Shown here one piece after another: positions 1 to 64,000 of a stretch of 64,000 nucleotides of DNA (the stretch's first letter is position 1; every line of letters starts with the position of its first letter). The DNA is from Ylistrum balloti (taxonomy: Eukaryota): contig NW_026782006.1 of assembly GCF_031769215.1 (NCBI RefSeq), positions 844,070 to 908,069 of the forward strand, in the 5' to 3' direction. Position numbers and translations under genes: made by a program. The notes below the pieces were generated by a model. That model did not search any database. It saw only the letters and a list, made by a program, of their open reading frames with translations, and had not been told where the DNA came from.

Positions 1-3000
1 CAATAACGGTAAGAAATACAAACATTTCCCGAAACTATTTCACTACAAGCCGTTATAACATTTCCCCGCGAAACTATTTCACTACAAGTCGTTTCCCCAC
101 GAAACTATTTCACTACAAGCCGTTATAACATTTCCCCGTGAAACTATATCACTACAAGCCGTTATAACATTTCCCCACGAAAATATTTCACTACAAGCCG
201 TTATAACGTTTCCCCGGGAAATTATTTCACTACAAGCCGTTATAACATTTCCCCACGAAACTATTTCACTGCAAGCCGTTATAACATTTCCCAATGAAAC
301 TATTTCACTACAAGCCGTTTTAATATTTCCCAATGAAACTATTTCACTACAAGCCGTTATAACATTTCCCCGCGAAACTATTTCACTACAAGCCGTTATA
401 ACATTTCCCCGCGAAACTATTTCACTACAAGCCGTTATAACATTTCCCCGCGAAACTATTTCACTACAAGCCGTTTCCCCACGAAACTATTTCACTACAA
501 GCCGTTATAACATTTCCCCGCGAAACTATTTCACTACAAGCCGTTATAACATTTCCCCGTAAAACTATTTCACTACCAGCCGTTATAACATTTCCCCGCG
601 AAACTATTTCACTACAAGCCGTTATAACATTTCCCAATGAAACTATTTCACTACAAGCCGTTTCCCCGTGAAATTATTTTACTACAAGCCGTTTTAATAT
701 TTCCCCGTGAAACTATTTCACTACAAGCCGTTATAACATTTCCCCACGAAACTATTTCACTACAAGCCGTTATAACATTTCCCCGCGAAACTATTTCACT
801 ACAAGCCGTTATAACATTTCCCCGTGAAACTATTTCACTACCAGCCGTTATAACATTTCCCCGCGAAACTATTTCACTACAAGCCGTTATAACATTTCCC
901 AATGAAACTATTTCACTACAAGCCGTTTCCCCGTGAAATTATTTTACTACAAGCCGTTTTAATATTTCCCCGCGAAACTATTTCACTACAAGCCGTTATA
1001 ACATTTCCCCACGAAACTATTTCACTACAAGCCGTTATAACATTTCCCAATGAAACTATTTCACTACAAGCCGTTATAACATTTCCCCGCGAAACTATTT
1101 CACTACAAGCCGTTATAACATTTCCCCGTGAAATTATTTCACTACAAGCCGTGAAACTATTTCACTACAAGCCGTTATAACATTTCCCAATGAAACTATT
1201 TCACTACAAGCCGTTATAACATTTCCCCGCGAAACTATTTCACTACAAGCCGTTATAACATTTCCCCGTGAAACTATTTCACTACAAGCCGTTATAACAT
1301 TTCCCCACGAAACTATTTCACTACAAGCCGTTATAACATTTCCCCGCGAAACTATTTCACTACAAGCCGTTATAACATTTCCCCACGAAACTATTTCACT
1401 ACAAGCCGTTATAACATTTCCCCGGGAAATTATTTCACTACAAGCCGTTATAACATTTCCCCGTGAAACTATTTCACTACAAGCCGTTATAACATTTCCC
1501 CGTGAAACTATTTCACTACAAGCCGTTATAACATTTCCCAATGAAACTATTTCACTACAAGCCGAAACTATTTCACTACAAGCCGTTATAACATTTCCCC
1601 GTGAAACTATTTCACTACAAGCCGTTATAACATTTCCCAATGAAACTATTTCACTACAAGCCGTTATAACATTTCCCCGCGAAACTATTTCACTACAAGC
1701 CGTTATAACATTTCCCCACGAAACTATTTCACTACAAGCCGTTATAACATTTCCCAATGAAACTATTTCACTACAAGCCGTTATAACATTTCCCCGCGAA
1801 ACTATTTCACTACAAGCCGTTATAACATTTCCCCGTGAAACTATTTCACTACAAGCCGTTTCCCCACGAAACTATTTCACTACCAGCCGTTATAACATTT
1901 CCCCGCGAAACTATTTCACTACAAGCCGTTATAACATTTCCCAATGAAACTATTTCACTACAAGCCGTTATAACATTTCCCCGTGAAACTATTTCACTAC
2001 AAGCCGTTATAACATGAAACTATTTCACTACAAGCCGTTATACGAAACTATTTCACTACAAGCCGTTATAACATTTCCCCACGAAACTATTTCACTGCAA
2101 GCCGTTATAACATTTCCCCGTGAAACTATTTCACTACAAGCCGTTATAACATTTCCCCGTGAAACTATTTCACTACAAGCCGTTTCCCCACGAAACTATT
2201 TCACTACAAGCCGTTATAATTTTCCCAGCGAAACTATTTCACTACAAGCCGTTATAACATTTCCCCGCGAAAATATTTCACTACAAGCCGTTATAACGTT
2301 TCCCCGTGAAACTATTTCACTACAAGCCGTTATAACATTTCCCAATGAAACTATTTCACTACAAGCCGTTATAACATTTCCCCACGAAACTATTTCACTA
2401 CCAGCCGTAATAACATTTCCCCGTGAAACTATTTCACTACCAGCCGTTATGAAACTATTTCACTAACGTTATAACATTTCCCAATGAAACTATTTCACTA
2501 CAAGCCGTTATAACCCCGACGAAACTATTTCACTACAAGCCGTTATAACATTTCCCGTTATAACATTTGAAACTATTTCACTACAAGCCGTTATAACAAC
2601 GAAACTATTTCACTACAAGCCGTTATAACATTTCACTACCCGTTATAACATTTCCCCACGAAACTATTTCACTACAAGCCGTTTCCCCACGAAACTATTT
2701 CACTACAAGCCGTTATAACGTTTCCCCGGGAAATTATTTCACTACAAGCCGTTATAACATTTCCCCGGGAAATTATTTCACTACAAGCCGTTATAACATT
2801 TCCCGACGAAACTATTTCACTGCAAGCCGTTATAACATTTCCCAATGAAACTATTTCACTACAAGCCGTTATAACATTTCCCCACGAAACTATTTCACTA
2901 CAAGCCGTTATAACATTTCCCAATGAAACTATTTCACTACAAGCCGTTATAACATTTCCCTATTTCACTACAAGCCGTTATAAATTTCCCAATGAAACGC

Positions 3001-4805
3001 GAAACTATTTCACTACAAGCCGTTATAACATTTCCCAAGCCATTATAACATTTCCCCGCGAAACTATTTCACTACAAGCCGTTATAACATTTCCCCGTGA
3101 AACTATTTCACTAAAAGCCGTTATAACATTTCCCGACGAAACTATTTCACTGCAAGCCGTTATAACATTTCCCCGCGAAACTATTTCACTACAAGCCGTA
3201 ATAACATTTCCCCGTGAAACTATTTCACTACAAGCCGTTATAACATTTCCCGACGAAACTATTTCACTACAAGCCGTTATAACATTTCCCAATGAAACTA
3301 TTTCACTACAAGCCGTAATAACATTTCCCCGTGAAACTATTTCACTACAAGCCGTTATAACATTTCCCAATGAAACTATTTCACTACAAGCCGTTATAAC
3401 ATTTCCCGACGAAACTATTTCACTGCAAGCCGTTATAACATTTCCCAATGAAACTATTTCACTACAAGCCGTTATAACATTTCCCCCCCCCCAGGAAACT
3501 ATTTCACTACAAGCCGTTATAACATTTCCCGACGAAACTATTTCACTACAAGCCGTTATAACATTTCCCCCCCCAGGAAACTATTTCACTACAAGCCGTT
3601 ATAACATTTCCCAACGAAACTATTTCACTACAAGCCGTTATAACATTTCCCCGTGAAACTATTTCACTACAAGCCGTTTCCCCACGAAACTATTTCACTA
3701 CAAGCCGTTATAACGTTTCCCAGCGAAACTATTTCACTGCAAGCCGTTATAACATTTCCCAATGAAACTATTTCACTACAAGCCGTTATAACATTTCACT
3801 ACCAGCCGTTATAACATTTCCCCGCGAAACTATTTCACTACAAGCCGTTATAACATTTCCCAATGAAACTATTTCACTACAAGCCGTTATAACATTTCCC
3901 CCCCAGGAAACTATTTCACTACAAGCCGTTATAACATTTCCCAATGAAACTATTTCACTACAAGCCGTTATAACATTTCCCCCCCCCCCAGGAAACTATT
4001 TCACTACAAGCCGTTATAACATTTCCCCCAAGGAAACTATTTCACTACAAGCCGTTATAACATTTCCCAATGAAACTATTTCACTACAAGCCGTTATAAC
4101 ATTTCCCAATGAAACTATTTCACTGCAAGCCGTTATAACATTTCCCCCCCAGGAAACTATTTCACTACAAGCCGTTATAACATTTCCCAATGAAACTATT
4201 TCACTACAAGCCGTTATAACATTTCCCGACGAAACTATTTCACTACAAGCCGTTATAACATTTCCCAATGAAACTATTTCACTGCAAGCCGTTATAACAT
4301 TTCTCCACGAAACTATTTCACTACAAGCCGTTATAACATTTCCCAATGAAACTATTTCACTAAAAGCCGTTATAACGTTTCCCCGCGAAACTATTTCACT
4401 ACAAGCCGTTATAACATTTCCCAATGAAACTATATCACTACAAGCCGTTATAACATTTCCCCGCGAAACTATTTCACTGCAAGCCGTTATAACATTTCCC
4501 AATGAAACTATTTCACTACAAGCTGTTATAACATTTCCCCGCGAAACTATTTCACTACAAGCCGTTATAACATTTCCCCACGAAACTATTTCACTACAAG
4601 CCGTTATAACATTTCCCCGCGAAACTATTTCACTACAAGCCGTTATAACATTTCCCCCACGAAATTATTTCACTACAAGCCGTTATAACATTTCTCCGGG
4701 AAATTATTTCGCTACAAGCCATTATAACATTTCCCCGTGAAACTATTTCACTACAAGCCGTTATAACATTTCCACGCGAAGCTATTTCATTACAAGCCGT
4801 TTTAA
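1..4805. repeat. Satellite A: ~39-bp unit (GAAACTATTTCACTACAAGCCGTTATAACATTTCCCCGC), ~120 tandem copies; includes a ~30-bp deletion variant (lacks TTATAACA...) and poly-C variants
   Basis: Direct reading: uninterrupted head-to-tail repetition. The 13-aa periodicity in the six-frame ORFs (GNVITACSEIVSR) equals 39 bp. Array ends ~4805, 69 bp before exon acceptor at 4873. Confidence 0.97.
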
Positions 4806-4873
4806 ATTGAAAACCAAATTTTGAATTTCTTTGACGCTAGATTGAATACTGATAAACGACGTGTATAATTCAG

Positions 4874-5014
4874 GTGGACCTCGGTAATGTGACCAGAGTG
4901 TTCGGCATAGCCACACAGAGCTACAGGTCGTCATCTTACTATACACTAACCTACCAAGTCACTTACAGTCGCGATGGCAACATCTTCACGAACGCAACTG
5001 GTGCCAGCGGAAAT
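4874..5014 (+). CDS. Gene A, penultimate coding exon: discoidin (F5/8 type C, FA58C) domain, central part (VDLGNVTRVFGIATQSYRSSSYYTLTYQVTYSRDGNIFTNATGASGN)
   Basis: Acceptor ..aattcAG at 4872-4873. Single open frame of 47 codons. Donor GTGAGT at 5015-5020. Translation carries discoidin hallmarks (VDLG ... gv.TQG ... Y.V.YS.DG..W). Confidence 0.8.
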
Positions 5015-5228: not shown

Positions 5229-5375
5229 ATTTTTTCCGCGAGTGCGAGTTACGACAGCATAATTAAACATGACTTGATGACGCCAGTTGTTGCCCGATTT
5301 GTCCGCTTCTATCCAAGATTGTGGCACACAGGAGGCAAGCCTGGACTCAGAGTGGAGGTGTACGGCTGCTACTGA
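5229..5375 (+). CDS. Gene A, terminal coding exon: discoidin domain C-terminus (IFSASASYDSIIKHDLMTPVVARFVRFYPRLWHTGGKPGLRVEVYGCY*)
   Basis: Acceptor ttaaattgcAG ending 5228, phase 0 continuous with previous exon. Motif ..ARFVRF.P..W....LRVEVYGC is the canonical FA58C C-terminus. TGA at 5373-5375. Confidence 0.8.
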   Translation: MFSASASYDSIIKHDLMTPVVARFVRFYPRLWHTGGKPGLRVEVYGCY

Positions 5376-5394: not shown

Positions 5395-8276
5395 TTTCTA
5401 TAAAAACATTCAGTCACTTGTGTTCAGTCATATATCCAACAACAAATGCCAGAGGAAATGGGGACCTGTTGTCGTATATTTATTAGTTCTCATGTTCTGA
5501 ATGGTATTGATGTAAGCAGCGATTTGAAACCGTCTCCTTTATGTGCCATTGACAGCGACAATTCACTATTCGACCAGTCGACGAAACCGTGTATTCTTCT
5601 GGCAAATTGATGGGACGCATTTTCCATCTAATTTGTTTCATATTCCTCCACTCAAAAAACTGTTGTCTAGACTCTGTCTTTAAAGGAAACAGACGTTTTT
5701 AGAAAACTCACAGAAATGCAGTTTTCAAAGACTGCTTGTGCAGAAGATAAAATCTTGAATACTTTTATATTTCCATATTATCAATTTCATCATGATATCT
5801 GTTAGATCTTTGTCCCTTTTCTCTTCTCAAAATCACTGTCAGAACAATTATGCACAACCAGGGAGTAAGACATTTTTTTATAAATACTAAAAGTGACAAC
5901 AATAAGAAAAATAGGGAAAATGACACAATAATTTTTTAAAACAGACTTAACCTTTATAATCCAAATATCTGCTGGTGTCGAACATAGATAATCCATCAAG
6001 TTCACAATGTACACAGAATCGATTCTGTAGAGGTTTGTTATGTTTCTGTATTGTGAAGCTCTTTTCAGTAGTTCACCGACGTAAATGTAAGATAAGAGTA
6101 CCAGCAAATTTAAAAGTGGACAGTGGATGCCATCTGGAAACAATGAAGTTAAAATTTGGCAGGCACACCTATAATCAAGTCTGTCGTCATCCCTGTATTT
6201 TATCAGGGAGATATCTTAGAAATTCCTAGAAATGAAATAACGGTAACCTCTTTAGAGCCATTATTCAAAATGGCTACAATTGTCAGTGTAGCTGGAAATG
6301 TACCATACTCATTTAAAACACATACAGAACAGGTTCATGATCTTTAAATCAGATCCTTTCATGGTTCTCCAGAGATGAACAGAGTAAGAAAAAATACTCT
6401 GGACAGACTAAGACATATACTCACAATTACAATATACTTTGGTCAAATGAAATAAACTGAATTCGAGTGCTTGTTACCTGATTGACAATATCAATCGGCC
6501 TGATTAAGTCCTTCAATTATTTTTCTCAAATTTCAATTTATAGATCTTGTCATTATGTATATTTCCATGTGATATAAGAAGTATTTTTTTCGATGATTGT
6601 GATCTTTAACCTGTTTACCATATAGAGAGCATGGTATTGCCTTGATTGACTGAACACATAGTAACTGTTAATTTAAGAATCATCCAAAATTTTAAGCTAC
6701 GAGAGCCTTCCATGAATTGGCCTAAATATTTGAACCCGTTAGGTTCATCATTCAGAATTAACATCTTGAAATGTAAGAACTTTTTTTATTATATTTCGTG
6801 TGTACAAAAGAACTAGGATTTCTTGATTATGAGGGATTGCCTATCTATACGTTATGCAATCTTTCCTAAGAAGAAATACTGTCTAACGTGCGACAATATT
6901 GCAATAATTTAAATTGCCTTTTAATGATAAGGATACGGACCTCCACTGTTAATATTTCTCGGGAATCCGTGTAAACCCAGATTTGATAGTACATTTTGTA
7001 TTTAGAATGGCAGTTCTCAGTTTTGACAAAGGCTCGGTTTAACAGCTAAACGAGCCCACAATAAAACGTTACATGGTTCCTGTGAAGCTTTTTGACAATC
7101 TTCAGCACAACTCTAAGCATTTCTTTAATAAGAACATTTGATATCTCCACTGTACATTACCATACCCCATTCCAAACAGAAAGAATACCTTCAGCTCTTG
7201 TTACGATAGCTTTCCAAGAAAGGTGGACGGTGGTACAAATATATGGTTGTGAACTATACTATTTTTCGTGAAATCAAAGAAGAAGTAAGAAGGCGAAATC
7301 TGGTTGACAACATCAGTTGAGTTTGAAGGCAAGACCGTATAACAGACTTTTGGCAAACCTTTGAAAACTAACTGTTCCCCTCTGTTGGTTGACTTATTTT
7401 TTATTTCATACGAGGCTGAATTTATCGAGGAACTTATCAAAACAGGCAACAAATACTTTGCAAAGTCGATCAGTTTCACTTTCAGAGATATCAAAGACAT
7501 CTTGTCTTTGAATCAGAAATTTATTGACCACGTCCATCGTATCAACCCACCAGAATTGGAAATCGAGGACACAACAGACTCTTCTACAATAGCTTTCTTA
7601 TCTCGATCTTTACCTACAATGAACCAACATGGACAGTTTGACATCAAACTGTATGATAAGCGTAATGATTTCAATTTCCCTCGAGTAAAATTTCCATTTC
7701 TGGATAGAAACATTCCTGCATCTAAACTATGGTGTACACATGTCGCAGTTGATTCGGCATGTTCCCATTATCAAGACGTTCGAGCAAGACGTTTTTACTG
7801 GCGGACAAACTCTCAACACATTGTTTCAAAAGATGCAGATTGATGGAAATAATGGGAAAGTTTTACGGTCGTCATAGTGATGTCAATGACAAATATTCTA
7901 TTTCCTTGTATGATATGAAGCTGGACGTGTTTGGATTGACCAAGATTTACATGGCGTGTGTCATCGATAAAGCAAAAGACCTTTACTCTTGCGGAACACC
8001 CTGTCTTATTTTCTTGTACTTTTTCAGAATCTCCGAGTATATCTTTCTTTTGTTCATAGCTTGCCCTAGTTTCATTGAATTTAAGATTGGTTTATGGTTA
8101 TGTTGACATGTTAGTCTTGATTCTTGAAGCAAACGACATCATTCGGGAGCACAAAGCATTCATTTTCCTAAATTTTATCCAACAAAAATCTATCTTTTAA
8201 AGTTCAAGTTGCTGAGCTATATAAACAACTAAAAACGAGACTCAATGAAGCATCCTTTGTTTTAATATAGAAACGA

Positions 8277-8429
8277 TCATTCAGACCCGTACACATGGCA
8301 TCCGTAGACTTCCACTTTTAAACAAGGTCTTCTTGAATAAGAGGTGGGATGGAAACGAATAAATCTAGCAACTATGGGCGTTGGTAGATTTTGGAAGTAC
8401 GGGCTTGATGAATATCTCGCAAGAAATGT
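8277..8429 (-). CDS. Gene B, terminal coding exon: discoidin domain C-terminus (TFLARYSSSPYFQNLPTPIVARFIRFHPTSYSRRPCLKVEVYGCHVYGSE*)
   Basis: Minus-strand acceptor tttcAG (revcomp of ctgaaa 8430-8435). Phase 0. Stop TGA = 8277-8279. Paralogous to gene A last exon (PxVARFxRFxP...xVEVYGC). Confidence 0.8.
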   Translation of the reverse strand, partial: TFLARYSSSPYFQNLPTPIVARFIRFHPTSYSRRPCLKVEVYGCHVYGSE

Positions 8430-9458
8430 CTGAAAGGTAATTAAATATACATACATAGTCATTGAATAAACGGTTCTCATCATTCAGCTCTTTAATCGTT
8501 GTATGAATAGGCTATGCCAATTACACTATACTGTACCAATTAAACATTAACAAACAACTAGTCGTTTGGAAAACTTCAGTAGAAATTTCATTATGTGATA
8601 AATAACACTTGGTGTTCCAAAAGTCGCTCACTATCATATACTGCTATATATAATTATGCGATCACGACCATTAATAACAGGTAACATCGTGACAATGTTT
8701 TAACTGCTTGTTGACATTAATTTCAGCAAAGAATTTCTAGAAGATCAGAAGATTGCTGACATACACAGAGAACATGACAACTTTCCGATTTTTTAAAATT
8801 ACAAAATGAAGCTGAAATTATTGGGGTGATTTGAGAGGCAAACGGTAGCTACTCTCTAACCCATACCATGATATTTATATACATAGCTTTTTTGTGTAAA
8901 TATCATCTTTATACGATAGGATGTACATAAACATATAGGTAATGGTTAGGCTACTCTCTAACCTATTGTATTGAAATTTGTTCAGACACATATTATTGCT
9001 GCAGTACTCTCTGAACCATTAAATTCATCTCTTTTAACCACAACTTTCATTAGATAAATAAGAAGATAAAAAAGTAACGAGATTTGCACGCAGTTATAAA
9101 TCGCCTCTATGTTCCAGATTGAAAGCGAAATACAAGATAGTGCACATCGGCATCTATATCAAAAAACCATTTCACCCGATTCTAATTTTCTTAAATCTCC
9201 TAAGTTTAAATCCTTTAAGTATCACTATGAGTCATAGTCAATAGTACCTATAGATACAAATCATCAATACAAATTCAGGATTAGATACAGTAAAGACAGA
9301 AACTAACTGCATCATACAGCTGTTTTGTCCTTCTAGTCAGTGATGCTGAGAGTCCAGATTTTGGTGTAGTTTAATTCATTATTTGGCTACACTACTGTGT
9401 TTAATCTAAAACGTGTATCGAAACGTGCCATTGTTAAAGACATCTTCCCTATACATAC

Positions 9459-9592
9459 ATAATCATTTCCGTTCGTGCCGTTGATTTTCTGGAAGATGTT
9501 ACCGTCAGTGCTGCAGGCTAGGGTGTAGGCTGTCGTGTACTGGGAACGAGAATAGCCTTGGGTCATCACTCTGTAGATCCTAGTCAGGTTAC
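9459..9592 (-). CDS. Gene B exon: discoidin domain central part (G)NLTRIYRVMTQGYSRSQYTTAYTLACSTDGNIFQKINGTNGNDY
   Basis: Minus acceptor ..cgacAG (9593-9594). Phase-1 entry completes Gly of WLQIDL|G. Donor GTATGT (9458-9453). Exon break falls after 'GN', as in gene A. Confidence 0.78.
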
Positions 9593-11165
9593 CTGTCGTG
9601 GTAATCGTAAATAATTTCTCTTTTACACTTAAAGGTGTATTCTTTCGTGCCACATTTTAATTCATTCGACCAGTTTAGAATGTACACAACTACTTGAAAT
9701 CGACCTAAATGATCTCATATATGAAAATTATGGAATTTATGGAAATATGAGACTGGTGCACTTCAACATCTAGATTTTGACTTTTCTTTCGATCACTTTG
9801 GATTTTCCTCAGTCTTCAATCTTCAGTGATTAAATATGCGAGTTATAAACATCTCGGACAATGGGAGATACTGTTCGTCAATAGTAATCCTCTTTTACAA
9901 TATAATTACGAGGTGCAAGGGTATAGCATTTTACAGTCGAGGACATCTCCAATTCTGACCTGTAGTCAAAAGTATGAGTCTTGATTTTCACCCTCAAGAT
10001 ATAGTTTAGCTGCAAATCAATATATCTGTTTCATTTTTTTTAAACTGAGTCAATCATTGAATTTAACTTTGATAAAAGCAATTTGAACTTAAATATCAAG
10101 TTTATGTTATTAACAAAAAAACATATTTAATTGAGTGTTTCGCACTAATCATCAGACTTCGTTCGCATTATCCACAGGGAAACTAAGTCCAGAAAGGTTT
10201 TATGAAATGCTGCTAGAGTTCCTACACAAACACGTCTAGTATTGATATTAATAATCAAATACAGATATAACATATCAATTATTGCAAAGTCGAATACAGT
10301 AAATACAATGGAAATATAAACCACTTTGGATAAGAGGAAACGCGTGTCCAATTTAGGCGAAAACAAACATTCATGTTTTCAAATGGAATCAGCGGATCAG
10401 ATCATACATCTATTGAAAAATTCAATTTACTGTGATGAAATAACCTTAAAACAATGCAACGTTTGTAAAATATTGAACTGAGTTTTTCCTCCATGTAACT
10501 TTTTAATTAATCTTATTTGAATACTGGAACGGTTCAGAAAACGTCATTGAAATAATTCAATATTAAAAAATACGAAATTGATTGAATTTTCGGGTAAGTG
10601 CACCTCCCAATCTGTTTTTGGACAGTCATCTAAAGTAGGTGTAGACTTATGTAGGAATAAGATATATTATCAACCAGATTATTTGAAGAAGGGAAACGTA
10701 CACGAGACACATAAGTGATAGTATCTTTTAAAACAAATAATAAGTCAGGTAAAGTATGCCAAAGAATGAATCATAGGAATCATATAGCTGCGAAGTCCTT
10801 CTGGGATTCGTCGGTGATGCTAAGGGCCTACATTTTGAAGCCTATGCGGCGACGGAGAAAACTACAAACTGATCGAAATATTAAAATCTAGGTCGGTGCT
10901 CCCTAATGCAATAAATTTCATAATTTCCATTGAACTGTCTGAATATTTCAGAAGAATTTTAAGTACACCTGTTAACGTCGTCAGGTGGCGCGCTGTGGTA
11001 AAACATTCGCTTCTCACTTAGCCGTCCGGGGTACGACAGGGAGTCACCAGCACGATTGTGTGGGTTTCCACACAAGACCATATCCACAGATAGAATTAGG
11101 TCAAGCCACATAAGAAAAACGTTCTTTTTTGTGTGTATACAGTACCATGTTCTTTCTCTACTTAC

Positions 11166-11333
11166 CTAAATCGATCTGGAGCCATGAGTTGGAGTCTTCT
11201 CCACACCATCCGTAGCCGCTGGCGGCGTATCTACCATTGGATGGCAAAAGCGTACTGTAGGTTTGGTAGGCAGTCATCTGAGCGTCGGGTATGGTGTACC
11301 GGTGCTGTACACCAACAGCCCGACTAGTACATG
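11166..11333 (-). CDS. Gene B exon: discoidin domain N-terminal part (A)CTSRAVGVQHRYTIPDAQMTAYQTYSTLLPSNGRYAASGYGWCGEDSNSWLQIDL
   Basis: Minus acceptor ttctAG (11334-11335). Phase 1 in, phase 1 out. Donor GTAAGT (11165-11160). Starts with Cys and ends WLQIDL, the discoidin N-terminal consensus. Confidence 0.8.
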
Positions 11334-12087: not shown

Positions 12088-12293
12088 CTGAAATATAGAT
12101 TCAATTTACTTATCGTTGAAAAAACAGCACGTAGTAACCACATCTTTAATTAACCATATTATTATACATGTATAAATTACCAAACACATAAATTGAAGAT
12201 TTCTATTTTATCTGATAACAAAATAATTTTACAGAAATAATCATTTTCCACCACAATATATTGTCATAACAGTAAAGACAAGATACATTATAC

Positions 12294-50639: not shown

Positions 50640-53600
50640 AGTTTTCATTTCCAAATGCTGTATCTGGTCTGATCTAGTTTGACTGTTCCAATGCTGTATC
50701 TGATCTGATCTAGTTTGACTGTCCCAATGCTGTCCCAATGCTGTATCTGATCTGATCTAGTTTGACTGTTCCAATGCTGTATCTGATCTGATCTAGTTTG
50801 ACTGTCCCAATGCTGTATCTGATCTGATCTAGTTTGACTGTCCCAATGCTGTATCTGATCTGATCTAATTTGACTGTTCCAATGCTGTATCTGATCTGAT
50901 CTAGTTTCACTGTTCCAATGCTGTATCTGATCTAGTTTCACTGTTCCAATGCTGTATCTGATCTGATCTAGTTTCACTGTTCCAATGCTGTATCTGATCT
51001 GATCTAGTTTGACTGTTCCAATGCTGTATCTGATCTGATCTAGTTTGACTGTTCCAATGCTGTATCTGATCTAGTTTGACTGTTCCAATGTTGTATCTGA
51101 TCTAGTTTGACTGTTCCAATACTGTATCTGATCTGATCTAGTTTCACTATTTCAATGCTGTATCTGATCTGATCTAGTTTGACTGTTCCAATGCTGTATC
51201 TGTTCTGATCTAGTTTTACTGTTCCAATGCTGTATCTGATCTGATCTAGTTTGACTGTACCAATGTTGTATCAGATTTAATGTAGTTTGACTGTTCCAAT
51301 GCTGTATCTGATCTGATCTAGTTTGACTTTTCCAATGCTGTATCTGATCTGATCTAGTTTGACTTTTCCAATGCTGTATCTGATCTGATTTAGTTTGACT
51401 GTTCCAATACTGTATCTGATCTTATTTAGATTCACTGTTCCAATGCTGTATCTGTTCTGATCTAGTTTGACTGTTCCAATGTTGTATCTGATCTAGTTTG
51501 ACTGTCCCAATGCTGTATCTGTTCTGATCTAGTTTGACTGTTCCAACGTTGTATCTGATCTAGTTTGACTGTCCCAATGCTGTATCTGATCTGATCTAGT
51601 TTGACTGTTCCAATGCTGTATCTGATCTGATCTAGTTTGACTGTTCCAATGCTGTATCTGATCTGATCTAGTTTGACTGTTCCAATGCTGTATCTGATCT
51701 GATCTAGTTTGACTGTTCCAATGCTGTATCTGATCTAGTTTGACTGTTCCAATGCTGTATCTGATCTGATCTAGTTTGACTGTTCCAATGCTGTATCTGA
51801 TCTAGTTTGACTGTTCCAATGCTGTATCTGATCTGATCTAGTTTGACTGTTCCAATGCTGTATCTGATCTGATCTAGTTTGACTGTTCCAAATCTGATTG
51901 TATCTGTTCTGATCTAGTTTGACTGTTCCAATGCTGTATTTGATCTGATCTAGTTTGTTCCAATGCTGTATCTGATCTGATCTAGTTTGACTGTTCCAAC
52001 ATTGTATCTGATCTAGTTTGACTGTCCCATTGCTGTATCTGATCTGATCTAGTTTGACTGTCCAAATGCTGTATCTGATCTGATCTAGTTTGACTGTTCC
52101 AATGCTGTATCTGATCTGATCTAGTTTGACTGTTCCAATGCTGTATCTGATCTGATCTAGTTTGACTGTTCAAACGTTGTATCTGATCTAGTTTGACTGT
52201 TCCAATGTTGTATCAGATCTAGTTTGACTGTTCCAATGTTGTATCTGATCTAGTTTGACTGTACCAATGTTGTATCAGATTTGATCTAGTTTGACTGTTC
52301 CAATGCTGTATCTGTTCTGATCTAGTTTGACTGTTCCAATGTTGTATCAGATCTAGTTTGACTGTCCCAATGCTGTATCTGTTCTAGTTTGACTGTTCCA
52401 ATGCTGTATCTGTTTGACTGTTCCAATGTATGCTGTATCTGTATCTAGTTTGACTGTTCCAATGCTGCATCTGTTCTGATCTATGCTGTATCTGATCTGA
52501 TCTAGTTTGACTGTACCAATGTTGTATCAGATTTGATCTAGTTTGACTGTTCCAATGCTGTATCTGTTCTGATCTAGTTTGAGTGTTCCAATGCTGTATC
52601 TGATCTAGTTTGACTGTTCCAATGCTGTATCTGATCTGATCTAGTTTGACTGTTCCAATGCTGTATCTGTTCTGATCTAGTTTGACTGTTCCAATGCTGT
52701 ATCTGATCTAGTTTGACTGTACCAATGTTGTATCAGATTTGATCTAGTTTGACTGTTCCAATGCTGTATCTGATCTAGTTTGATTGTCCCAATGCTGTAT
52801 CTGATCTGATCTAGTTTGACTCCAATGCTGTATCTGATCTAGTTTGACTGTTCCAATGCTGTATCTGATCTGATCTAGTTTGACTGTTCCCAATCTGATC
52901 TAGTTTCACTGTCCCAATGCTGTATCTGATCTAGTTTGACTGTCCCAATGCTGTATCTGATCTGATCTAGTTTAACTGTTCCAATGTTGTATCTGATCTG
53001 ATCTAGTTTGACTGTCCCAATGCTGTATCTGATCTAGTTTAACTGTTCCAATGTTGTATCTGATCTGATCTAGTTTGACTGTCCCAATGCTGTATCTGAT
53101 CTAGTTTGACTGTTCCAATGCTGTATCTGATCTGATCTGTATCTGATCTGATCTAGTGTATCTGATCTAGTTTGACTTTTCCAATGCTGTATCTGATCTG
53201 ATTTAGTTTGACTGTTCCAATACTGTATCTGATCTTATTTAGATTCACTGTTCCAATGCTGTATCTGTTCTGATCTAGTTTGACTGTTCCAATGCTGTAT
53301 TTGATCTGATCTAGTTTGTTCCAATGCTGTATCTGATCTGATCTAGTTTGACTGTTCCAACATTGTATCTGATCTGATGTAGTTTGACTGTTCCAATGCT
53401 GTATCTGATCTAGTTTGACTGTTCCAATGTTGTATCTGATCTAGTTTGACTGTTCCAATACTGTATCTGATCTAGTTTGACTGTTCCAATGCTGTATCTG
53501 ATCTAGTTTCACTGTTCCAAAGCTGTATCTGATCTGATCTAGTTTGACTGTTCCAATGCTGTATCTGATCTGATCTAGTTTGACTGTTCCAATGCTGTAT

Positions 53601-55520
53601 CTGTTCTGATCTAGTTTTACTGTTCCAATGCTGTATCTGATCTAGTTTGACTGTTCCAATGCTGTTCCAATGCTGTATCTGATCTAGTTTGACTGTTCCA
53701 ATGCTGTATCTGATCTGATCTAGTTTAACTGTTCCAATGCTGTATCTGATCTGATCTAGTTTGACTGTACCAATGTTGTATCAGATTTAATGTAGTTTGA
53801 CTGTTCCAAAGCTGTATCTGATCTGATCTAGTTTCACTGTCCCAATACTGTATCTGATCTGATCTAGTTTGACTTTTCCAATGCTGTATCTGATCTGATC
53901 TAGTTTGACTTTTCCAATGCTGTATCTGATCTGATCTAGTTTGACTGTTCCAATACTGTATCTGATCTGATCTAGTTTCACTATTTCAATGCTGTATCTG
54001 ATCTGATCTAGTTTGACTGTTCCAACTATTTCAATGCTGTATCTGATCTGATCTAGTTTGACTGTTCCAATGCTGTATCTGTTCTGATCTAGTTTGACTG
54101 TCCCAATGCTGTATCTGATCTGATCTAGTTTCACTGTCCCAATACTGTATCTGATCTGATCTAGTTTGACTTTTCCAATGCTGTATCTGATCTGATCTAA
54201 TTTGACTGTTCCAATGCTGTATCTGATCTGATCTGATCTAGTTTCACTGTTTCAAAGCTGTATCTGATCTCATCTAGTTTGACTATTTCAATGCTGTATC
54301 TGATCTGATCTAGTTTGACTGTTCCAATGCTGTATCTGTTCTGATCTAGTTTGACTGTTCCAATGCTGTATCTGATCTAGTGAACTGTTCCAATGCTGTA
54401 TCTGATCTGATCTAGTTTGACTGTTCCAATGCTGTATCTGATCTAGTTTGACTGTTCCAATGCTGTATCTGATCTAGTTTGACTGTTCCAATGCTGTATC
54501 TGATCTGATCTAGTTTGACTGTTCCAATGCTGTATCTGATCTGATCTAGTTTGACTGTTCCAATGCTGTATCTGATCTAGTTTGACTGTTCCAATGTTGT
54601 ATCTGATCTGATCTAGTTTGACTGTCCCAATGCTGTATCTGATCTAGTTTGACTGTTCCAATGCTGTATCTGATCTGATCTAGTTTCACTGTTCCAATGC
54701 TGTATCTGATCTAGTTTGACTGTTCCAATACTGTATCTGATCTGATCTAGTTTGACTGTTCCAATGCTGTATCTGATCTGATCTAGTTTCACTGTTCCAA
54801 TGCTGTATCTGATCTAGTTTGAGTGTTCCAATGCTGTATCTGATCTGATCTAGTTTCACTGTTCCAATGCTGTATCTGATCTGATCTAGTTTCACTGTTC
54901 CAATGCTGTATCTGATCTAGTTTGACTGTTCCAATACTGTATCTGATCTGATCTAGTTTCACTGTTCCAACGTTGTATCTGATCTAGTTTGATTGTCCCA
55001 ATGCTGTATCTAATCTGATCTAGTTTCACTGTCCCAATGCTGTATTTGATCTGATCTAGTTTGACTTTTCCAATGCTGTATCTGATCTGATCTAGTTTGA
55101 CTTTTCCAATGCTGTATCTGATCCAACATTGTATCTGATCTAGTTTGACTGTTCCAATGCTGTATCTGATCTAGTTTGACTGTTCCAATGCTGTATCTGT
55201 TCTGATCTATATTCACTGTTCCACCGTTGTATCTGATCTAGTTTGACTGTCCCAATGCTGTATCTGATCTGATCTAGTTTTGACTTCTTCAACCAAACAC
55301 ATTAACTGTATCTGATCTAGTTTGACTGTTCCAATGAACTCTGAATATCATTTTTCCAATGTCTGTCATCTGATCTAGTTTAACACACTGTCCAATGCTG
55401 TATCTGATCTGATCTAGTTTCACTGTCCCAATGCTGTATTTGATCTGATCTAGTTTGACTTTTCCAATGCTGTATCTGATCTGATCTAGTTCAACTGTTC
55501 CAATGCTGTATCTGATCAAG
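50640..55520. repeat. Satellite S: 36-bp unit (CTGATCTGATCTAGTTTGACTGTTCCAATGCTGTAT) intermixed with a 29-bp variant lacking one CTGATCT, ~140 copies
   Basis: 12-aa periodic ORFs (DQIQHWNSQTRS / KLDQIRYSIGTV). Direct reading. Confidence 0.97.
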
Positions 55521-55859: not shown

Positions 55860-58800
55860 TTAACTATACACCTGTTTCACATCCATATGCTGTAACAGAT
55901 TAACATAATGCTAGATCCCTAGACAGTAATCCAAATTATATCTTTGGTAATAATACACTAGTTAATACAGATTAACAAGCTGTATAACTGGTACATCCTG
56001 TTATTTTGTAACACAGATTAATACTAGGATCCCTAGGGGTAATAATGCTGTGGTTATATCTGTAAACAGATTAACATACTGGTTATATCATTAACATACT
56101 AGATCCCTAGGGGTAATAATACACTCCTGGTTATATCTGTAACAGATTAACATACTAGATCCCTAGGGGTAATAATACACTCCAGGTTATATCTGTAAAC
56201 AGATTAACATACTAGATCCCTAGGGGTAATAATACACTCCTGGTTATATCTGTAACCAGTAATAATAACACTCCTGGTTATATCTAAACAGAACATACTA
56301 GACAATAACACTCCTGGTTAACTGTGTACAACTAGATCCCTAGGGGTAATAATACACTCCTGGTTATATCTGTAAACAGATTAACATACTAGATCCCTAG
56401 GGGTAATAATACACTCCTGGTTATATCTGTAACAGATTAACATACTAGATCCCTAGGGGTAATAATACACTCCTGGTTATATCTGTAACAGATTAACATA
56501 CTAGATCCCTAGGGGTAATAATACACTCCTGGTTATATCTGTAAACAGATTAACATACTAGATCCCTAGGGGTAATAATACACTCCTGGTTATATCTGTA
56601 ACAGATAGATACTAGATCCCTAGGGGTAATAATACACTCCTGGTTATATCTGTAAACAGATTAACATACTAGATCCCTAGGGGTAATAATACACTCCTGG
56701 TTATATCTGTAACAGATTAACATACTAGATCCCTAGGGGTAATAATACACTCCTGGTTATATCTGTAAACAGATTAAATATTACTGGTTATACTAGTAAA
56801 CAGATCCCTAGAGGGGTAATAATACACTCCTGGTTATATCTGTAAACAGATTAACATATAGATCCCTAGGGGTAATAATACACTCCTGGTTATATCTGTA
56901 ACAGATAGATACTAGATCCCTAGGGGTAATAATACACTCCTGGTTATATCTGTAACAGATAGATACTAGATCCCTAGGGGTAATAATACACTCCTGGTTA
57001 TATCTGTAACAGATTAACATACTAGATCCCTAGGGGTAATAATACACTCCTGGTTATATCTGTAAACAGATTAACATACTAGATCCCTAGGGGTAATAAT
57101 ACACTCCTGGTTATATCTGTAAACAGATTAACATACTAGATCCCTAGGGGTAATAATACACTCCTGGTTATATCTGTAAACAGATTAACATACTAGATCC
57201 CTAGGGGTAATAATACACTCCTGGTTATATCTGTAAACAGATTAACATACTAGATCCCTAGGGGTAATAATACACTCCTGGTTATATCTGTAACAGATAG
57301 ATACTAGATCCCTAGGGGTAATAATACACTCCTGGTTATATCTGTAACAGATTAACATACTAGATCCCTAGGGGTAATAATACACTCCTGGTTATATCTG
57401 TAACAGATTAACATACTAGATCCCTAGGGGTAATAATACACTCCTGGTTATATCTGTAAACAGATTAACATAGATACTAGATCCCTAGGGGTAATAATAC
57501 ACTCCTGGTTATATCTGTAAACAGATTAACATACTAGATCCCTAGGGGTAATAATACACTCCTGGTTATATCTGTAAACAGATTAACATACTAGATCCCT
57601 AGGGGTAATAATACACTCCTGGTTATATCTGTAACAGATTAACATACTAGATCCCTAGGGGTAATAATACACTCCTGGTTATATCTGGAACAGTAGGATA
57701 CTAGATCCCTAGGGGTAATAATACACTCCTGGTTATATCTGTAAACAGATTAACATACTAGATCCCTAGGGGTAATAATACACTCCTGGTTATATCTGTA
57801 AACAGATTAACATACTAGATCCCTAGGGGTAATAATACACTCCTGGTTATATCTGTAACAGATTAACATACTAGATCCCTAGGGGTAATAATACACTCCA
57901 GGTTATATCTGTAAACAGATTAACATACTAGATCCCTAGGGGTAATAATACACTCCAGATTATATCTGTAACAGATTAACATACTAGATCCCTAGGGGTA
58001 ATAATACACTCCTGGTTATATCTGTAACAATAGGATACTAGATCCCTAGGGGTAATAATACACTCCTGGTTATATCTGTAAACAGATTAACATACTAGAT
58101 CCCTAGGGGTAATAATACACTCCTGGTTATATCTGTAACAGATTAACATACTAGATCCCTAGGGGTAATAATACACTCCTGGTTATATCTGTAAACAGAT
58201 TAACATACTAGATCCCTAGGGGTAATAATACACTCCTGGTTATATCTGTAACAGATTAACATACTAGATCCCTAGGGGTAATAATACACTCCTGGTTATA
58301 TCTGTAAACAGATTAACATACTAGATCCCTAGGGGTAATAATACACTCCTGGTTATATCTGTAAACAGATTAACATACTAGATCCCTAGGGGTAATAATA
58401 CACTCCTGGTTATATCTGGAACAATAGGATACTAGATCCCTAGGGGTAATAATACACTCCTGGTTATATCTGTAAACAGATTAACATAATAGATCCCTAG
58501 GGGTAATAATACACTCCTGGTTATATCTGTAACAGATTAACATACTAGATCCCTAGGGGTAATAATACACTCCTGTTATATATAACATACTAGATCCCTA
58601 GGGGTAATAATACACTCCTGGTTATATCTGTAACAGATTAACATACTAGATCCCTAGGGGTAATAATACACTCCTGGTTATATCTGTAAACAGATTAACA
58701 TACTAGATCCCTAGGGGTAATAATACACTCCTGGTTATATCTGTAAACAGATTAACATACTAGATCCCTAGGGGTAATAATACACTCCTGGTTATATCTG

Positions 58801-60090
58801 TAAACAGATTAACATACTAGATCCCTAGGGGTAATAATACACTCCTGGTTATATCTGTAACAGATTAACATACTAGATCCCTAGGGGTAATAATACACTC
58901 CTGGTTATATCTGTAAACAGATTAACATACTAGATCCCTAGGGGTAATAATACACTCCTGGTTATATCTGTAACAGATTAACATACTAGATCCCTAGGGG
59001 TAATAATACACTCCTGGTTATATCTGTAAACAGATTAACATACTAGATCCCTAGGGGTAATAATACACTCCTGGTTATATCTGTAAACAGATTAACATAC
59101 TAGATCCCTAGGGGTAATAATACACTCCTGGTTATATCTGTAAACAGATTAACATACTAGATCCCTAGGGGTAATAATACACTCCTGGTTATATCTGTAA
59201 ACAGATTAACATACTAGATCCCTAGGGGTAATAATACACTCCTGGTTATATCTGTAACAGATTAACATACTAGATCCCTAGGGGTAATAATACACTCCTG
59301 GTTATATCTGTAAACAGATTAACATACTAGATCCCTAGGGGTAATAATACACTCCTGGTTATATCTGTAAACAGATTAACATAATAGATCCCTAGGGGTA
59401 ATAATACACTCCTGGTTATATCTGTAAACAGATCTGTAATAAACACTCCTGGTTATATCTGTAACAGATTAACATACTAGATCCCTAGGGGTAATAATAC
59501 ACTCCTGGTTATATCTGTAACAGATAGATACTAGATCCCTAGGGGTAATAATACACTCCTGGTTATATCTGTAAACAGATTAACATACTAGATCCCTAGG
59601 GGTAATAATACACTCCTGGTTATATCTGTAAACAGATTAACATACTAGATCCCTAGGGGTAATAATACACTCCTGGTTATATCTGTAAACAGATTAACAT
59701 ACTAGATCCCTAGGGGTAATAATACACTCCTGGTTATATCTGTAAACAGATTAACATACTAGATCCCTAGGGGTAATAATACACTCCTGGTTATATCTGT
59801 AAACAGATTAACATACTAGATCCCTAGGGGTAATAATACACTCCTGGTTATATCTGTAACAGATTAACATACTAGATCCCTAGGGGTAATAATACACTCC
59901 TGGTTATATCTGTAACAGATTAACATACTAGATCCCTAGGGGTAATAATACACTCCTGGTTATATCTGTAACAGATAGATACTAGATCCCTAGGGGTAAT
60001 AATACACTCCTGGTTATATCTGTGACAGATAGATACTAGATCCCTAGGGGTAATAATACACTCCTGGTTATATCTGTGACAGATAAACAT
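55860..60090. repeat. Satellite T: 57-bp unit (CAGATTAACATACTAGATCCCTAGGGGTAATAATACACTCCTGGTTATATCTGTAAA), ~73 copies; 54-bp variant with ACAGATAGATACTAG; degenerate copies 55860-56090
   Basis: Period 57 (56341 -> 56398). Unit contains CCCTAGGG palindrome. Confidence 0.97.
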
Positions 60091-60239
60091 AATCCTAGAG
60101 AGTAATTATTCAATTTACATTATACCAAGATTAGTTACAGCACCTATCATTTTACCCTCATTAAGAAAAAGTATGGAAGAGAGGAAATGAATGACACATA
60201 TAAGAGAGATTTCGAATCTGTATCATTAGTCCATCATTT

Positions 60240-62485
60240 TTATACATTGATGTGAACTTACCCTGCTATACAGTGTTCCTGCTGATACATTGATGTGATT
60301 CCTGCTGATACATCCTGGTTATATCTGTGAATTACCCTGCTATACAGTGTTCCTGCTGATACATTGATGTGAACTTACCCTGCTATACAGTGTTCCTGCT
60401 GATACATGGATGTGAACTTACCCTGCTATACAGTGTTCCTGCTGATACATTGATGTGAACTTACCCTGCTATACAGTGTTCCTGCTGATACATTGATGTG
60501 AACTTACCCTGCTATACAGTGTTCCTGCTGATACATTGATGTGAACTTACCCTGCTATACAGTGTTCCTGCTGATACATTGATGTGAACTTACCCTGCTA
60601 TACAGTGTTCCTGCTGATACATTGATGTGAACTTACCCTGCTATACAGTGTTCCTGCTGATACATGGATGTGAACTTACCCTGCTATACAGTGTTCCTGC
60701 TGATACATGGATGTGAACTTACCCTGCTATACAGTGTTCCTGCTGATACATGGATGTGAACTTACCCTGCTATACAGTGTTCCTGCTGATACATTGATGT
60801 GAACTTACCCTGCTATACAGTGTTCCTGCTGATACATTGATGTGAACTTACCCTGCTATACAGTGTTCCTGCTGATACATGGATGTGAACTTACCCTGCT
60901 ATACAGTGTTCCTGCTGATACATGGATGTGAACTTACCCTGCTATACAGTGTTCCTGCTGATACATTGATGTGAACTTACCCTGCTATACAGTGTTCCTG
61001 CTGATACTGATGTGAACTTACCCTGCTATACAGTGTTCCTGCTGATACATTGATGTGAACTTACCCTGCTATACAGTGTTCCTGCTGATACATTGATGTG
61101 AACTTACCCTGCTATACAGTGTTCCTGCTGATACATGGATGTGAACTTACCCTGCTATACAGTGTTCCTGCTGATACATGGATGTGAACTTACCCTGCTA
61201 TACAGTGTTCCTGCTGATACATGGATGTGAACTTACCCTGCTATACAGTGTTCCTGCTGATACATGGATGTGACTTACCCTGCTATACAGTGTTCCTGCT
61301 GATACATGGATGTGAACTTACCCTGCTATACAGTGTTCCTGCTGATACATGGATGTGAACTTACCCTGCTATACAGTGTTCCTGCTGATACATGGATGTG
61401 AACTTACCCTGCTATACAGTGTTCCTGCTGATACATGGATGTGAACTTACCCTGCTATACAGTGTTCCTGCTGATACATGGATGTGAACTTACCCTGCTA
61501 TACAGTGTTCCTGCTGATACATTGATGTGAACTTACCCTGCTATACAGTGTTCCTGCTGATACATTGATGTGAACTTACCCTGCTATACAGTGTTCCTGC
61601 TGATACATTGATGTGAACTTACCCTGCTATACAGTGTTCCTGCTGATACATTGATGTGAACTTACCCTGCTATACAGTGTTCCTGCTGATACATTGATGT
61701 GAACTTACCCTGCTATACAGTGTTCCTGCTGATACATGGATGTGAACTTACCCTGCTATACAGTGTTCCTGCTGATACATTGATGTGAACTTACCCTGCT
61801 ATACAGTGTTCCTGCTGATACATGGATGTGAACTTACCCTGCTATACAGTGTTCCTGCTGATACATTGATGTGAACTTACCCTGCTATACAGTGTTCCTG
61901 CTGATACATGGATGTGAACTTACCCTGCTATACAGTGTTCCTGCTGATACATTGATGTGAACTTACCCTGCTATACAGTGTTCCTGCTGATACATTGATG
62001 TGAACTTACCCTGCTATACAGTGTTCCTGCTGATACATGGATGTGAACTTACCCTGCTATACAGTGTTCCTGCTGATACATGGATGTGAACTTACCCTGC
62101 TATACAGTGTTCCTGCTGATACATTGATGTGAACTTACCCTGCTATACAGTGTTCCTGCTGATACATTGATGTGAACTTACCCTGCTATACAGTGTTCCT
62201 GCTGATACATGGATGTGAACTTACCCTGCTATACAGTGTTCCTGCTGATACATGGATGTGAACTTACCCTGCTATACAGTGTTCCTGCTGATACATGGAT
62301 GTGAACTTACCCTGCTATACAGTGTTCCTGCTGATACATGGATGTGAACTTACCCTGCTATACAGTGTTCCTGCTGATACATGGATGTGAACTTACCCTG
62401 CTATACAGTGTTCCTGCTGATACATTGATGTGAACTTACCCTGCTATACAGTGTTCCTGCTGATACATGGATGTGAACTTACCAT
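60240..62485. repeat. Satellite U: 43-bp unit (CCTGCTATACAGTGTTCCTGCTGATACATTGATGTGAACTTAC; ATTGATG/ATGGATG variants), ~52 copies
   Basis: Period 43 (60371 -> 60414). Confidence 0.97.
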
Positions 62486-63027: not shown

Positions 63028-63289
63028 CTGTAACACAAGATCAATAATAGATTTCAAAGTAGGTAAACATATACCCTAGTTATGAACTAGATCTTATGAT
63101 CTTATGATAACAGATTTAACAAGAGGCCCATGGGCCTTTACAGTCATCCAACTATAAAGACCTATATATGAAAGAGGCAAAAAAGGTCTAAAATAAATTA
63201 CTCAGCTACTCTAAATACAGCTTACATAGAAGACATTGGTTGGATATGAAAGACACTTTCTGCAAACTTGAAATTATATTTTTTTATAC

Positions 63290-63960
63290 ATGCACTACAT
63301 AATTGCCACTATTCCAGATGTATTACTTGTTGAAAAAGCAAGCTACAGGCCAAGTATCAAGACCCTTGGCCTTTCGGTTATTGAAAAGAAGTTGCTTAAG
63401 CATTTTATTATATTTTACCCCTGTGACCATGAAAGATGGCCCTATATCAGCTCCCTGGGCCTTTTGGTTATTGAGCAGTCATTTAAACATTTTAACATAT
63501 TTGAAATCTGTGACATTGAAAGTGGGTCAATGTCATTCATATTAACAAAGTTGGTAGCTCTCCATCCTAACATGCTACAGGACTAATATCATTATCCTGA
63601 GCCTTTTGGTTATTGAGATGAAGTTGCTTAAGCATTTCAATATATTTGATTCCTATGACCTTTCAAGCAGATAAAGGTCATTCCTATTAACTAGGGGTTG
63701 ATCCAACTTTTTGAATTTAAGAAATCATTCCCCACTCACCATGATGTTTGAAACAAAATTTGGTGGAAACACATCCAAGCATTAAGAAAGCGTAGTATTT
63801 TGAAGCAAAACATCGCTTAACTTCCCCTTTTGGAGCCCTGCCCAAAAGTCCTTTGGGGATGAATCAAATCATGAATTTATCAAAACAATTCCTACATTCA
63901 ATGATGTTTCAGGCCAAATTTGGTTGAAATTAATTCAAGCATTCTATATCTCCCTCCACC
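63290..63960. repeat. ~110-120-bp tandem repeat x3 (CTGGGCCTTTTGGTTATTGA..AAGTTGCTTAAGCATTT..ATATTT.A..C..TGACC..) followed by units related to the 31480-32200 family
   Basis: Direct reading; units at ~63350, 63460, 63590; 63720-63960 contains two ATGATGTTT(G/C)A..CAAATTTGGT(G/T)GAAA..TCCAAGCATT copies. Confidence 0.55.
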
Positions 63961-64000
63961 CCCTCTATCAAGTAGGGGTGTGGGGACACTATGATAACAG

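Follow-up and report, generated by a model that had tools for sequence, protein, structure and literature searches.

Introduction

Tandem repeats are known to be spread through bivalve genomes by HINE-type elements, and oyster Cg_HINE and the related pearl-type elements share one architecture, with monomers of 140–180 bp that are mostly present in five copies or fewer (PMC7492417). The 5′ end of a HINE consists of a subterminal inverted repeat (subTIR) of 11–12 bp and an adjacent complementary inverted repeat (IR), followed by a short microsatellite of the GTCY type (PMC7492417). The satellite arrays of the Pacific oyster are mostly short, with monomers of about 140–180 bp, and are linked to transposons (PMC8268682). 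Here we describe a stretch of 64,000 bp from the scallop Ylistrum balloti (contig NW_026782006.1, positions 844,070–908,069 of the forward strand; hereafter the window), in which tandem arrays, lettered A to U, lie in and between intron-split genes. By far the most probable reading of this locus is that minisatellites were born locally and independently of one another, and that they are accompanied by one array borne by a Helentron and one repeat that codes for protein.

Results

Tandem-repeat census of the window

The window is nuclear DNA of Ylistrum balloti, a pectinid bivalve. An earlier note, made from the letters alone, had described it as eukaryotic and mollusc-like, and the exons read from it indeed reproduce two RefSeq proteins of this species, XP_060065434.1 (gene 1, EDIL3-like) and XP_060065435.1 (gene 2, LOC132545763), which are recorded together on one RefSeq contig of 1,729,599 bp. 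With GT-AG boundaries and exact translation required, 19 in-window exons of these two genes, plus two 3′ exons of a third, paralogous gene, were reconstructed base by base. The GC content of the window is 31–44%.

The Tandem Repeats Finder program (TRF) returned 109 rows for the window, which collapsed to 21 array blocks, in line with the earlier estimate of at least 19. Together the arrays cover 39,414 of the 64,000 bases (61.6%), with units of 26–156 bp, from about 3 to about 140 copies, and lengths of 0.1–4.9 kb. Fifteen of the 19 unit sizes proposed earlier were recovered exactly; the other four were off by 2–3 bp (48, 42, 30, and 61 bp, corrected here to 45, 45, 27, and 59 bp), and arrays M and R had been missed. 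The arrays had also been called very homogeneous, which is true of some, but TRF match levels of 75–98% indicate that homogeneity ranges from moderate to very high. Sixteen of the arrays are intronic (array A only probably so), four are intergenic, and one, array R, is coding; their share is 47% in gene 1, 72% in the part of gene 2 inside the window, and 53% in the spacer. The exon maps thus agree with the earlier placement of arrays both between and inside genes. The GT-AG exons said to lie in short unique segments between the arrays are real, but these segments range from 59 bp to 9.2 kb and are not all short.

Comparison of the trimerised consensus units, all against all and on both strands, showed the array families to be mutually unrelated, as had been claimed, with the sole exception of 14 nt common to the adjacent K1 and K2. 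The arrays are accordingly not diverged versions of one another. A similarity between T and U had been suspected, and no sequence relationship between these two was observed in the same comparison. After masking, the unique segments were mutually dissimilar; the exceptions are two copies of a 74-nt transposon fragment and two local repeats that are weak and diverged. For several arrays TRF scored better at multiples of the unit (117 for A, 99 for B, 52 and 78 for P, 113 for T, and 119 for I), which fits block-wise duplication; a search for higher-order structure by ungapped lag identity gave no information, as the phase is shifted by indels.

Nineteen of the 21 arrays are non-coding minisatellites, located in introns and one intergenic spacer: their units fall within about 10–100 bp and follow one another head to tail, without spacers, over hundreds of base pairs to several kilobases. 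They differ from classical satellites, which are abundant monomers of heterochromatic or centromeric DNA, in lying in the introns and spacer of syntenic genes, and each family was seen once, within one assembly locus. Nor do they resemble CRISPR or other prokaryotic repeats, as the units abut without spacers and the sole genes are intron-split animal genes; the earlier statement that no prokaryotic defence system is present therefore holds. Not all arrays are satellites: array R is coding sequence.

Arrays that include a splice junction

Four arrays, B and C in gene 1 and L and U in gene 2, overlap or abut an exon end. Array B (33-bp unit, 79 copies; 13958–16564, minus strand) lies in intron 2 of gene 1 and reaches 6 nt into exon 3. 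Its unit, GCTGGTCATTGTAAGTCTATCCTTTGTTGGCAG in the sense orientation, corresponds to the real acceptor and the first exon codons and carries the 3′ splice site with GCTGGT, plus GTAAGT; YAG|GCTGG was found in 66 units and GTAAGT in 46, and most units have both the acceptor and GTAAGT. Array C (50-bp unit, about 12 copies; 17108–17699, minus strand) occupies the 3′ end of intron 1 of gene 1 and reaches 14 nt into exon 2, and its unit combines the acceptor CCCATTTCAG with a diverged copy of the start of exon 2. The exon starts at both of these junctions are conserved in Pecten and Argopecten. Array L (38-bp unit, 42 copies; 35807–37420, minus strand) overlaps the last 21 nt of the gene 2 exon at 37522–37400, its unit consisting of the exon end followed by a GTGAGT donor that is present in 32 units. 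Array U (43-bp unit, 50 copies, 98% matches; 60326–62483, minus strand) starts exactly at the GTAAGT donor of the 40-nt exon at 62522–62483; in its unit, GTAAGT and a 20-nt stretch with CAG at its end precede a 17-nt piece that resembles a micro-exon, GAACACTGTATAGCAGG, and the full motif occurs in 49 units.

Compared in register, the units matched the adjoining exon ends at 11 of 24 positions for B (p = 0.05), 14 of 24 for C (p = 0.002), 21 of 24 for L (p = 2e-9), and 13 of 24 for U (p = 0.006). The consensus GTRAGT was found on the sense strand of 46 units of B, 32 of L, and 50 of U, and on the antisense strand of none, as expected if the junction was duplicated in tandem. Since a splice site and the exon end next to it are part of the units of B, C, L, and U, the four arrays were born in place by tandem duplication; these units can only derive from duplication of the junction itself.

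The units of arrays B and U also bear on the proteins. On the minus strand, the frame of exon 3 continues without a stop through at least the five units of array B nearest the exon (AGHCKSILCWQ...), and the acceptor of an upstream unit, if used, would insert in-frame 11-residue repeats into the secreted EDIL3-like protein. In gene 2, the residues EHCIAG of the RefSeq protein can be encoded within the window only by the 17-nt piece of array U. About 50 copies of this piece, all equivalent, lie between CAG| and |GTAAGT, and the proline-rich frame, as in the Argopecten homolog, is kept only if one of them (or 1 + 3n) is included. Judging by this arrangement, the EHCIAG micro-exon may reflect either real splicing or a fix introduced during model building.

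Array Q is part of a Helentron-type element

Array Q (156 bp × 3.9 by TRF; 48802–49411, minus strand) forms the central repeats of a non-autonomous Helentron that was inserted here. The element, which is HINE/pearl-like and was recognized by its architecture and its dispersed copies, extends over 48534–49515 on the minus strand, and its order on the element strand is 5′ subTIR and IR, (GTCC)n, central repeats, 3′ subTIR, and palindrome. The 5′ subTIR and IR form a hairpin of 15 nt, GCCCACCATCTA/TAGATGGTGGGC, at 49485–49515, within which the subTIR ATGGTGGGC lies at 49503–49511. The microsatellite that adjoins it (49419–49465) reads (ACGG)n as written, or (GTCC)n on the element strand, and has no counterpart elsewhere in the window. 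At the other end, the 3′ subTIR GCCCACCAT (48563–48572) is the reverse complement of ATGGTGGGC, and the palindrome GATCCCAGAGGGATC (48540–48554) lies beyond it.

A scan of metagenome contigs for this palindrome gave ten loci, nine of them on NSIT01 contigs. These nine carry 155-bp repeats that are 72–80% identical to Q and stem from a bivalve-like source other than Y. balloti. Five of the nine have the left (3′) flank of the Q element, at 81–94% identity, and four have the right (5′) flank; past each terminus, homology breaks off abruptly (alignments A1 and A2). Array Q and its surroundings thus show the monomer size and copy number, the 5′ subTIR-IR-microsatellite end, the 3′ subTIR-palindrome end, and the dispersed copies with flanks that characterize HINEs. 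The nine contigs (L006 and L008–L015), which are filed as metagenome, hold bivalve-type Helentrons at a GC content of 32–44%, and they are probably host (bivalve) DNA rather than microbial DNA.

The earlier note had proposed that arrays in such regions are often seeded by Helitron- or Helentron-type elements. This proposal fits Q; the other arrays are without such features, and four were born in place. A wider form of it would have most or all arrays delivered by Helitron/Helentron carriers, or by miniature inverted-repeat transposable elements, and later expanded, as in oyster Cg_HINE. In its favor, Q is exactly such an element with dispersed copies, and tandem repeats are spread in this way in bivalve genomes (PMC7492417). 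As an account of the whole set, we consider it very unlikely. The arrays do not have conserved common flanks, and inverted repeats of at least 10 nt in the flanks were observed only at M, N, and T, where about 1.8 cases would be expected by chance among 21 arrays by our estimate. The (ACGG/GTCC)n run adjoins Q only. The other 19 non-coding arrays, with units of 26–89 bp, up to 140 copies, and flank features at chance level, are outside the range of HINEs, and the units of B, C, L, and U hold the end and splice site of a neighboring exon. Finally, none of the other 20 families was found in the 62 kb of NSIT01 loci, which hold only Q-like sequence, save for a few short matches to H in one locus.

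Comparison with other scallops

The orthologous locus has a paralog tail-to-tail with the gene 1 ortholog in Pecten maximus (L003) as well as in Argopecten irradians (L004), and in Argopecten gene 2 lies upstream of the gene 1 ortholog, so that the gene order is the same as in Y. balloti. Tandem repeats cover only 2.8% of the locus in Pecten and 5.3% in Argopecten. Intron 1 of gene 1 measures 5.27 kb, against about 1.7 kb in Pecten, and 1.24 kb when its arrays are left out; intron 2 measures 3.09 kb, against about 0.64 kb, and 0.48 kb without its array. The excess length of both introns over Pecten is therefore due to the arrays. Likewise, array K lies in a gene 2 intron of 2.3 kb, whose Argopecten counterpart measures about 0.28 kb. 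The loci of Pecten, Argopecten, and Mizuhopecten contained no match to any array consensus.

The paralog cluster of Mizuhopecten yessoensis (L005) consists of 23% tandem repeats. Two of its arrays, at 10811–12256 (47-bp unit, 1.4 kb) and 14796–16740 (51-bp unit, 1.9 kb, 99% matched), are intronic in an EDIL3-like paralog, and the Mizuhopecten arrays occupy other introns and have other sequences than those of Y. balloti. Kilobase-scale intronic minisatellites are thus a recurring trait of scallops, of which the window is an extreme case. A TGTAAGTC motif seemed common to array B and a Mizuhopecten array; homology was rejected, as the two arrays lie in different introns.

The only repeat common to scallop genera in these loci is a unit of about 142 bp, present in the window as about 2.5 diverged copies (63336–63691) that TRF did not report. 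It is 70–78% identical to a repeat of 145 bp × 4.7 located just downstream of the Argopecten gene 2 ortholog (L004, 4485–5167), which is a different place in the locus.

These comparisons also bear on the idea that the density of arrays is an assembly artefact, produced by mis-joined or inflated repeats or by a chimeric scaffold. Some support for it might be seen in the indels of about 10% between the units of arrays A and S (TRF), as noisy long reads can yield such differences. We nevertheless regard it as still less probable than general delivery by carriers. The 19 exons of the two genes are intact, collinear, and correctly ordered; gene order and orientation are as in Argopecten, and the tail-to-tail paralog is found in both Pecten and Argopecten. 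The synteny with these two scallops, together with the exon order, argues against a chimera. Furthermore, the independent assembly of Mizuhopecten also has intronic arrays of kilobase scale, and the units within the arrays of the window vary, the copies not being identical.

Origin and possible function of the arrays

The reading that we prefer, local and independent birth of the minisatellites, would involve few steps. Each minisatellite would have started when a few tens of bases were duplicated in tandem on the spot, and the arrays could then have grown to 0.1–4.9 kb by replication slippage and unequal exchange, as is generally supposed for minisatellites. Growth would have been independent at each site and, as far as its timing can be judged, would have followed the split from Pecten and Argopecten. 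The four junction arrays started as duplications across an exon-intron junction, by which every unit gained a copy of the splice site; the gene still reads through, as one junction copy beside the true exon can be used.

Several points weigh against this reading. The footprint of local origin is visible in four arrays only, and the case for the other 15 rests on absent carrier features. Junction-spanning arrays are also not clearly in excess: with arrays placed at random, ancestral introns of a few hundred bases, and units of 26–57 bp, about 1.8 would be expected by our estimate, compared with the four observed (Poisson p ~0.1), and for this reason a splice-junction hotspot for arrays is not claimed. 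The array families are known from one Y. balloti locus and may be either unique to it or dispersed in the genome, and their copy numbers come from one assembly and could be mis-assembled. Finally, the kilobase-scale arrays of Mizuhopecten indicate that the trait is not confined to one lineage, and the timing rests on two outgroup loci.

We infer that the arrays are without function, as no evidence of one was found: they have no common fold or sequence, and they are not conserved in the other scallops. Most array units fold no better than shuffled sequences. A fold or hairpin common to all units was considered and rejected, since conspicuous z-scores were obtained for N (−5.4) and J (−2.9) only. 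That the arrays are selected functional elements, such as decoy or stepwise splice sites, regulatory repeats, or sources of small RNAs, is the least probable of the alternatives, because the sense-only GTRAGT donors of B, L, and U that favor it follow from the junction origin, and because the arrays are unconserved in other scallops and share neither sequence nor fold, even if the RefSeq model requires one 17-nt micro-exon of U for the conserved proline-rich frame. For the splice-junction arrays B, L, and U taken by themselves, whose consensus 5′ splice sites stand in tandem with matching acceptor-like sites, use by the spliceosome, either to take out bloated introns step by step or to supply new micro-exons, seems unlikely; if it were true, the scallop would offer a natural test case for splicing amid dozens of identical competing sites.

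The remaining non-coding arrays

All of the following arrays were delimited by TRF. Array A (39-bp unit, about 122 copies; 30–4805) is clipped by the start of the window and, lying upstream of the last two exons of the paralog, is probably intronic. Intron 1 of gene 1 holds, apart from C, arrays D and E (18489–18609 and 18671–18846), with unrelated 45-bp units in 2.7 and 3.9 copies, and array F (27-bp unit, about 117 copies; 18978–22116); B is the array of intron 2. The spacer of about 10 kb between the start of gene 1 (22439) and the stop of gene 2 (32571) is filled by the four intergenic arrays, G (69 bp × 20; 22897–24256), H (89 bp × 6.7; 24375–25041), I (40 bp × 74; 25264–28203), and J (59 bp × 3.8; 30250–30675).

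The introns of gene 2 contain arrays K, L, M, N, O, P, Q, S, T, and U. Array K (33768–34840) has a 42-bp unit (K1) that grades into a 26-bp unit (K2), and array M (37761–37871) consists of three identical copies of a 37-bp unit and adjoins a truncated retrotransposon. Array N (39129–40311) has 46 copies of a 26-bp unit with a perfect palindrome of 14 nt, ATGAGATATCTCAT, which as DNA forms by far the strongest hairpin among the units. It is followed by arrays O (43-bp unit, 89 copies, 94% matches; 41196–45013) and P (26-bp unit, about 96 copies; 45252–47738). Array S (36-bp unit, about 140 copies; 50649–55517) stops 53 nt upstream of the acceptor of the large gene 2 exon, and array T (57-bp unit, about 70 copies) extends over 56090–60091.

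Gene maps

Gene 1 (8277–22439, minus strand) has nine exons, and its GT-AG reconstruction reproduced XP_060065434.1 in 355 of 355 residues. The exons lie at 22439–22393, 17121–17055, 13963–13871, 12869–12768, 12483–12294, 12087–11974, 11333–11166, 9592–9459, and 8429–8277. With the spliced sequence as query, the NCBI record was EGF-like repeat and discoidin I-like domain-containing protein 3 [Ylistrum balloti], and the next matches were proteins of Argopecten, Mizuhopecten, and Pecten at 58–60% identity. A Pfam search identified one F5/8 type C domain on the minus strand that is split over three exons, with profile positions 13–43, 42–90, and 92–126 at 11161–11361, 9390–9656, and 8280–8483, respectively, and a He_PIG domain upstream of these pieces. 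The open reading frame (ORF) pieces of the F5/8 type C domain are edged by consensus acceptor and donor sites. The paralog, lactadherin/EDIL3-like, is represented on the plus strand by its last two exons, 4874–5014 and 5229–5375, the second with the stop codon; they were identified by the Pfam domain F5_F8_type_C (E = 1e-7) and by their splice sites, and they are 72–79% identical in amino acids (tblastx) to the tail-to-tail paralog of Pecten and Argopecten.

Gene 2 was likewise reconstructed exactly with GT-AG boundaries, from ten exons on the minus strand (32571–63027) that encode residues 92–701 of XP_060065435.1. In order, these are 63027–62945, 62522–62483, the 17-nt micro-exon (any unit of array U), 50595–49659, 45165–45106, 40759–40681, 37522–37400, 35673–35573, 33274–33178, and 32866–32571, of which the final three are conserved in Argopecten. 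A protein search with three exon pieces of gene 2 gave no match, and a single-exon query succeeded. Residues 1–91 of the protein (P0021) are encoded past window position 64000. The RefSeq model opens with an exact duplication of its first 38 residues (MSCEVEDQYEV...PIPSK), the two copies being separated by a 15-residue stretch, which suggests either a further tandem duplication that included an exon or a model artefact just beyond the window.

Array R (48-bp unit, about 13 copies; 49966–50589, minus strand) lies within the 937-nt exon of gene 2 and is a protein-coding proline-rich repeat, not a satellite, with a repeating unit of 16 residues (PPPPPPKSAMAFT...). The Argopecten protein P0022, read by eye and unaligned, has a similar proline-rich repeat with ...AMAFT/...MAFT at different spacing. 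A second frame of the same exon (49659–50595, minus strand) is also open, over 233 residues.

Other repeats and transposon remnants

Next to array M, at 37884–38779 on the plus strand, lies a 5′-truncated non-LTR (long terminal repeat) retrotransposon, comprising a 171-aa ORF tail and a 3′ region that ends in (TAT)n. The fragment is 92.8% identical over 866 bp to the ENA contig ERZ27315697 k141_107589 (L001), in which the ORF just upstream matches the C-terminus of RVT_1 (E = 5e-6), and it is 71% identical to a Logan contig from SRR19746222. A plus-strand ORF of 166 residues at 7343–7840 contains the motif YDKRNDFNFP, known from a repeat widespread in mollusc and cnidarian genomes; the ORF had no Pfam or PDB match. 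A 74-nt piece of this ORF recurs with 85% identity at 25155–25228 on the minus strand, adjoining array I. The two transposon-like ORFs gave no match among PDB sequences. At 31432–32135 (plus strand), two to three diverged copies with about 75% identity are spaced by 445 bp, with frames rich in Pro, Phe, and Gly (PPFPPSWAPIGAMPFFFANLKRLP); we take this segment to resemble a dispersed bivalve repeat.

Searches of the 64-kb window revealed no tRNA, no Rfam family, no telomeric repeat, and no long ORF outside the repeats, and the ORFs derived from repeats and spacers gave no Pfam match beyond the real exons. Exact look-up of the window ORFs and of both Y. balloti proteins in the contig index returned no record. 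The consensus of array U had no match among viral contigs, and that of array O none among metagenome contigs. The window is animal DNA, with no microbial or viral system involved.

Discussion

The arrays described here are a new example of repeat kinds that are already known, to which the junction-derived arrays add a neat detail. The locus is a clean, small example of fast intron growth, in which two introns reached 3–5 times their Pecten length through private minisatellites. It also shows tandem repeats of a bivalve with two distinct origins in one locus: one array was delivered by a Helentron-type element, and at least four were born at splice junctions of the very genes that hold them. 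Tens of perfect splice sites in tandem inside working genes make it a testable case for splice-site choice.

The closest likeness is to the minisatellites of animals of the variable-number tandem repeat type, which show the same units of 26–89 bp, head-to-tail arrays of 0.1–5 kb, locus-specific sequence, and variant units. The euchromatic, intronic setting is also alike, and the assignment rests on unit and layout, as length polymorphism is not visible in one assembly. What sets the scallop locus apart from them is its density, which is extreme: 19 arrays here (61.6% of 64 kb when Q and R are included), compared with 3–5% in the orthologous loci of two scallops. A further parallel is the Rogers-type model, in which introns are reportedly created or changed by tandem duplication across an AG|GT site. 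In both cases, a duplication that includes a splice site gives duplicate usable sites, which are tolerated because splicing removes the extras; in the window, however, existing junctions have been amplified 12–79 times inside existing introns, and no new intron is seen.

With the Pacific oyster satellitome (PMC8268682), the locus shares many unrelated repeat families situated in gene-rich bivalve DNA, outside blocks of heterochromatin. In contrast to the oyster satellites, the scallop units are short and the arrays long, and at least four of the arrays derive from splice junctions of host genes. Array Q, finally, compares directly with Cg_HINE, pearl, DTC84, and MgE (PMC7492417), with which it shares a 156-bp monomer in 3.9 copies, the subTIR and IR, the (GTCC)n run, the palindrome, and dispersed copies with flanks. 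This likeness, judged on architecture, applies to one of the 21 arrays.

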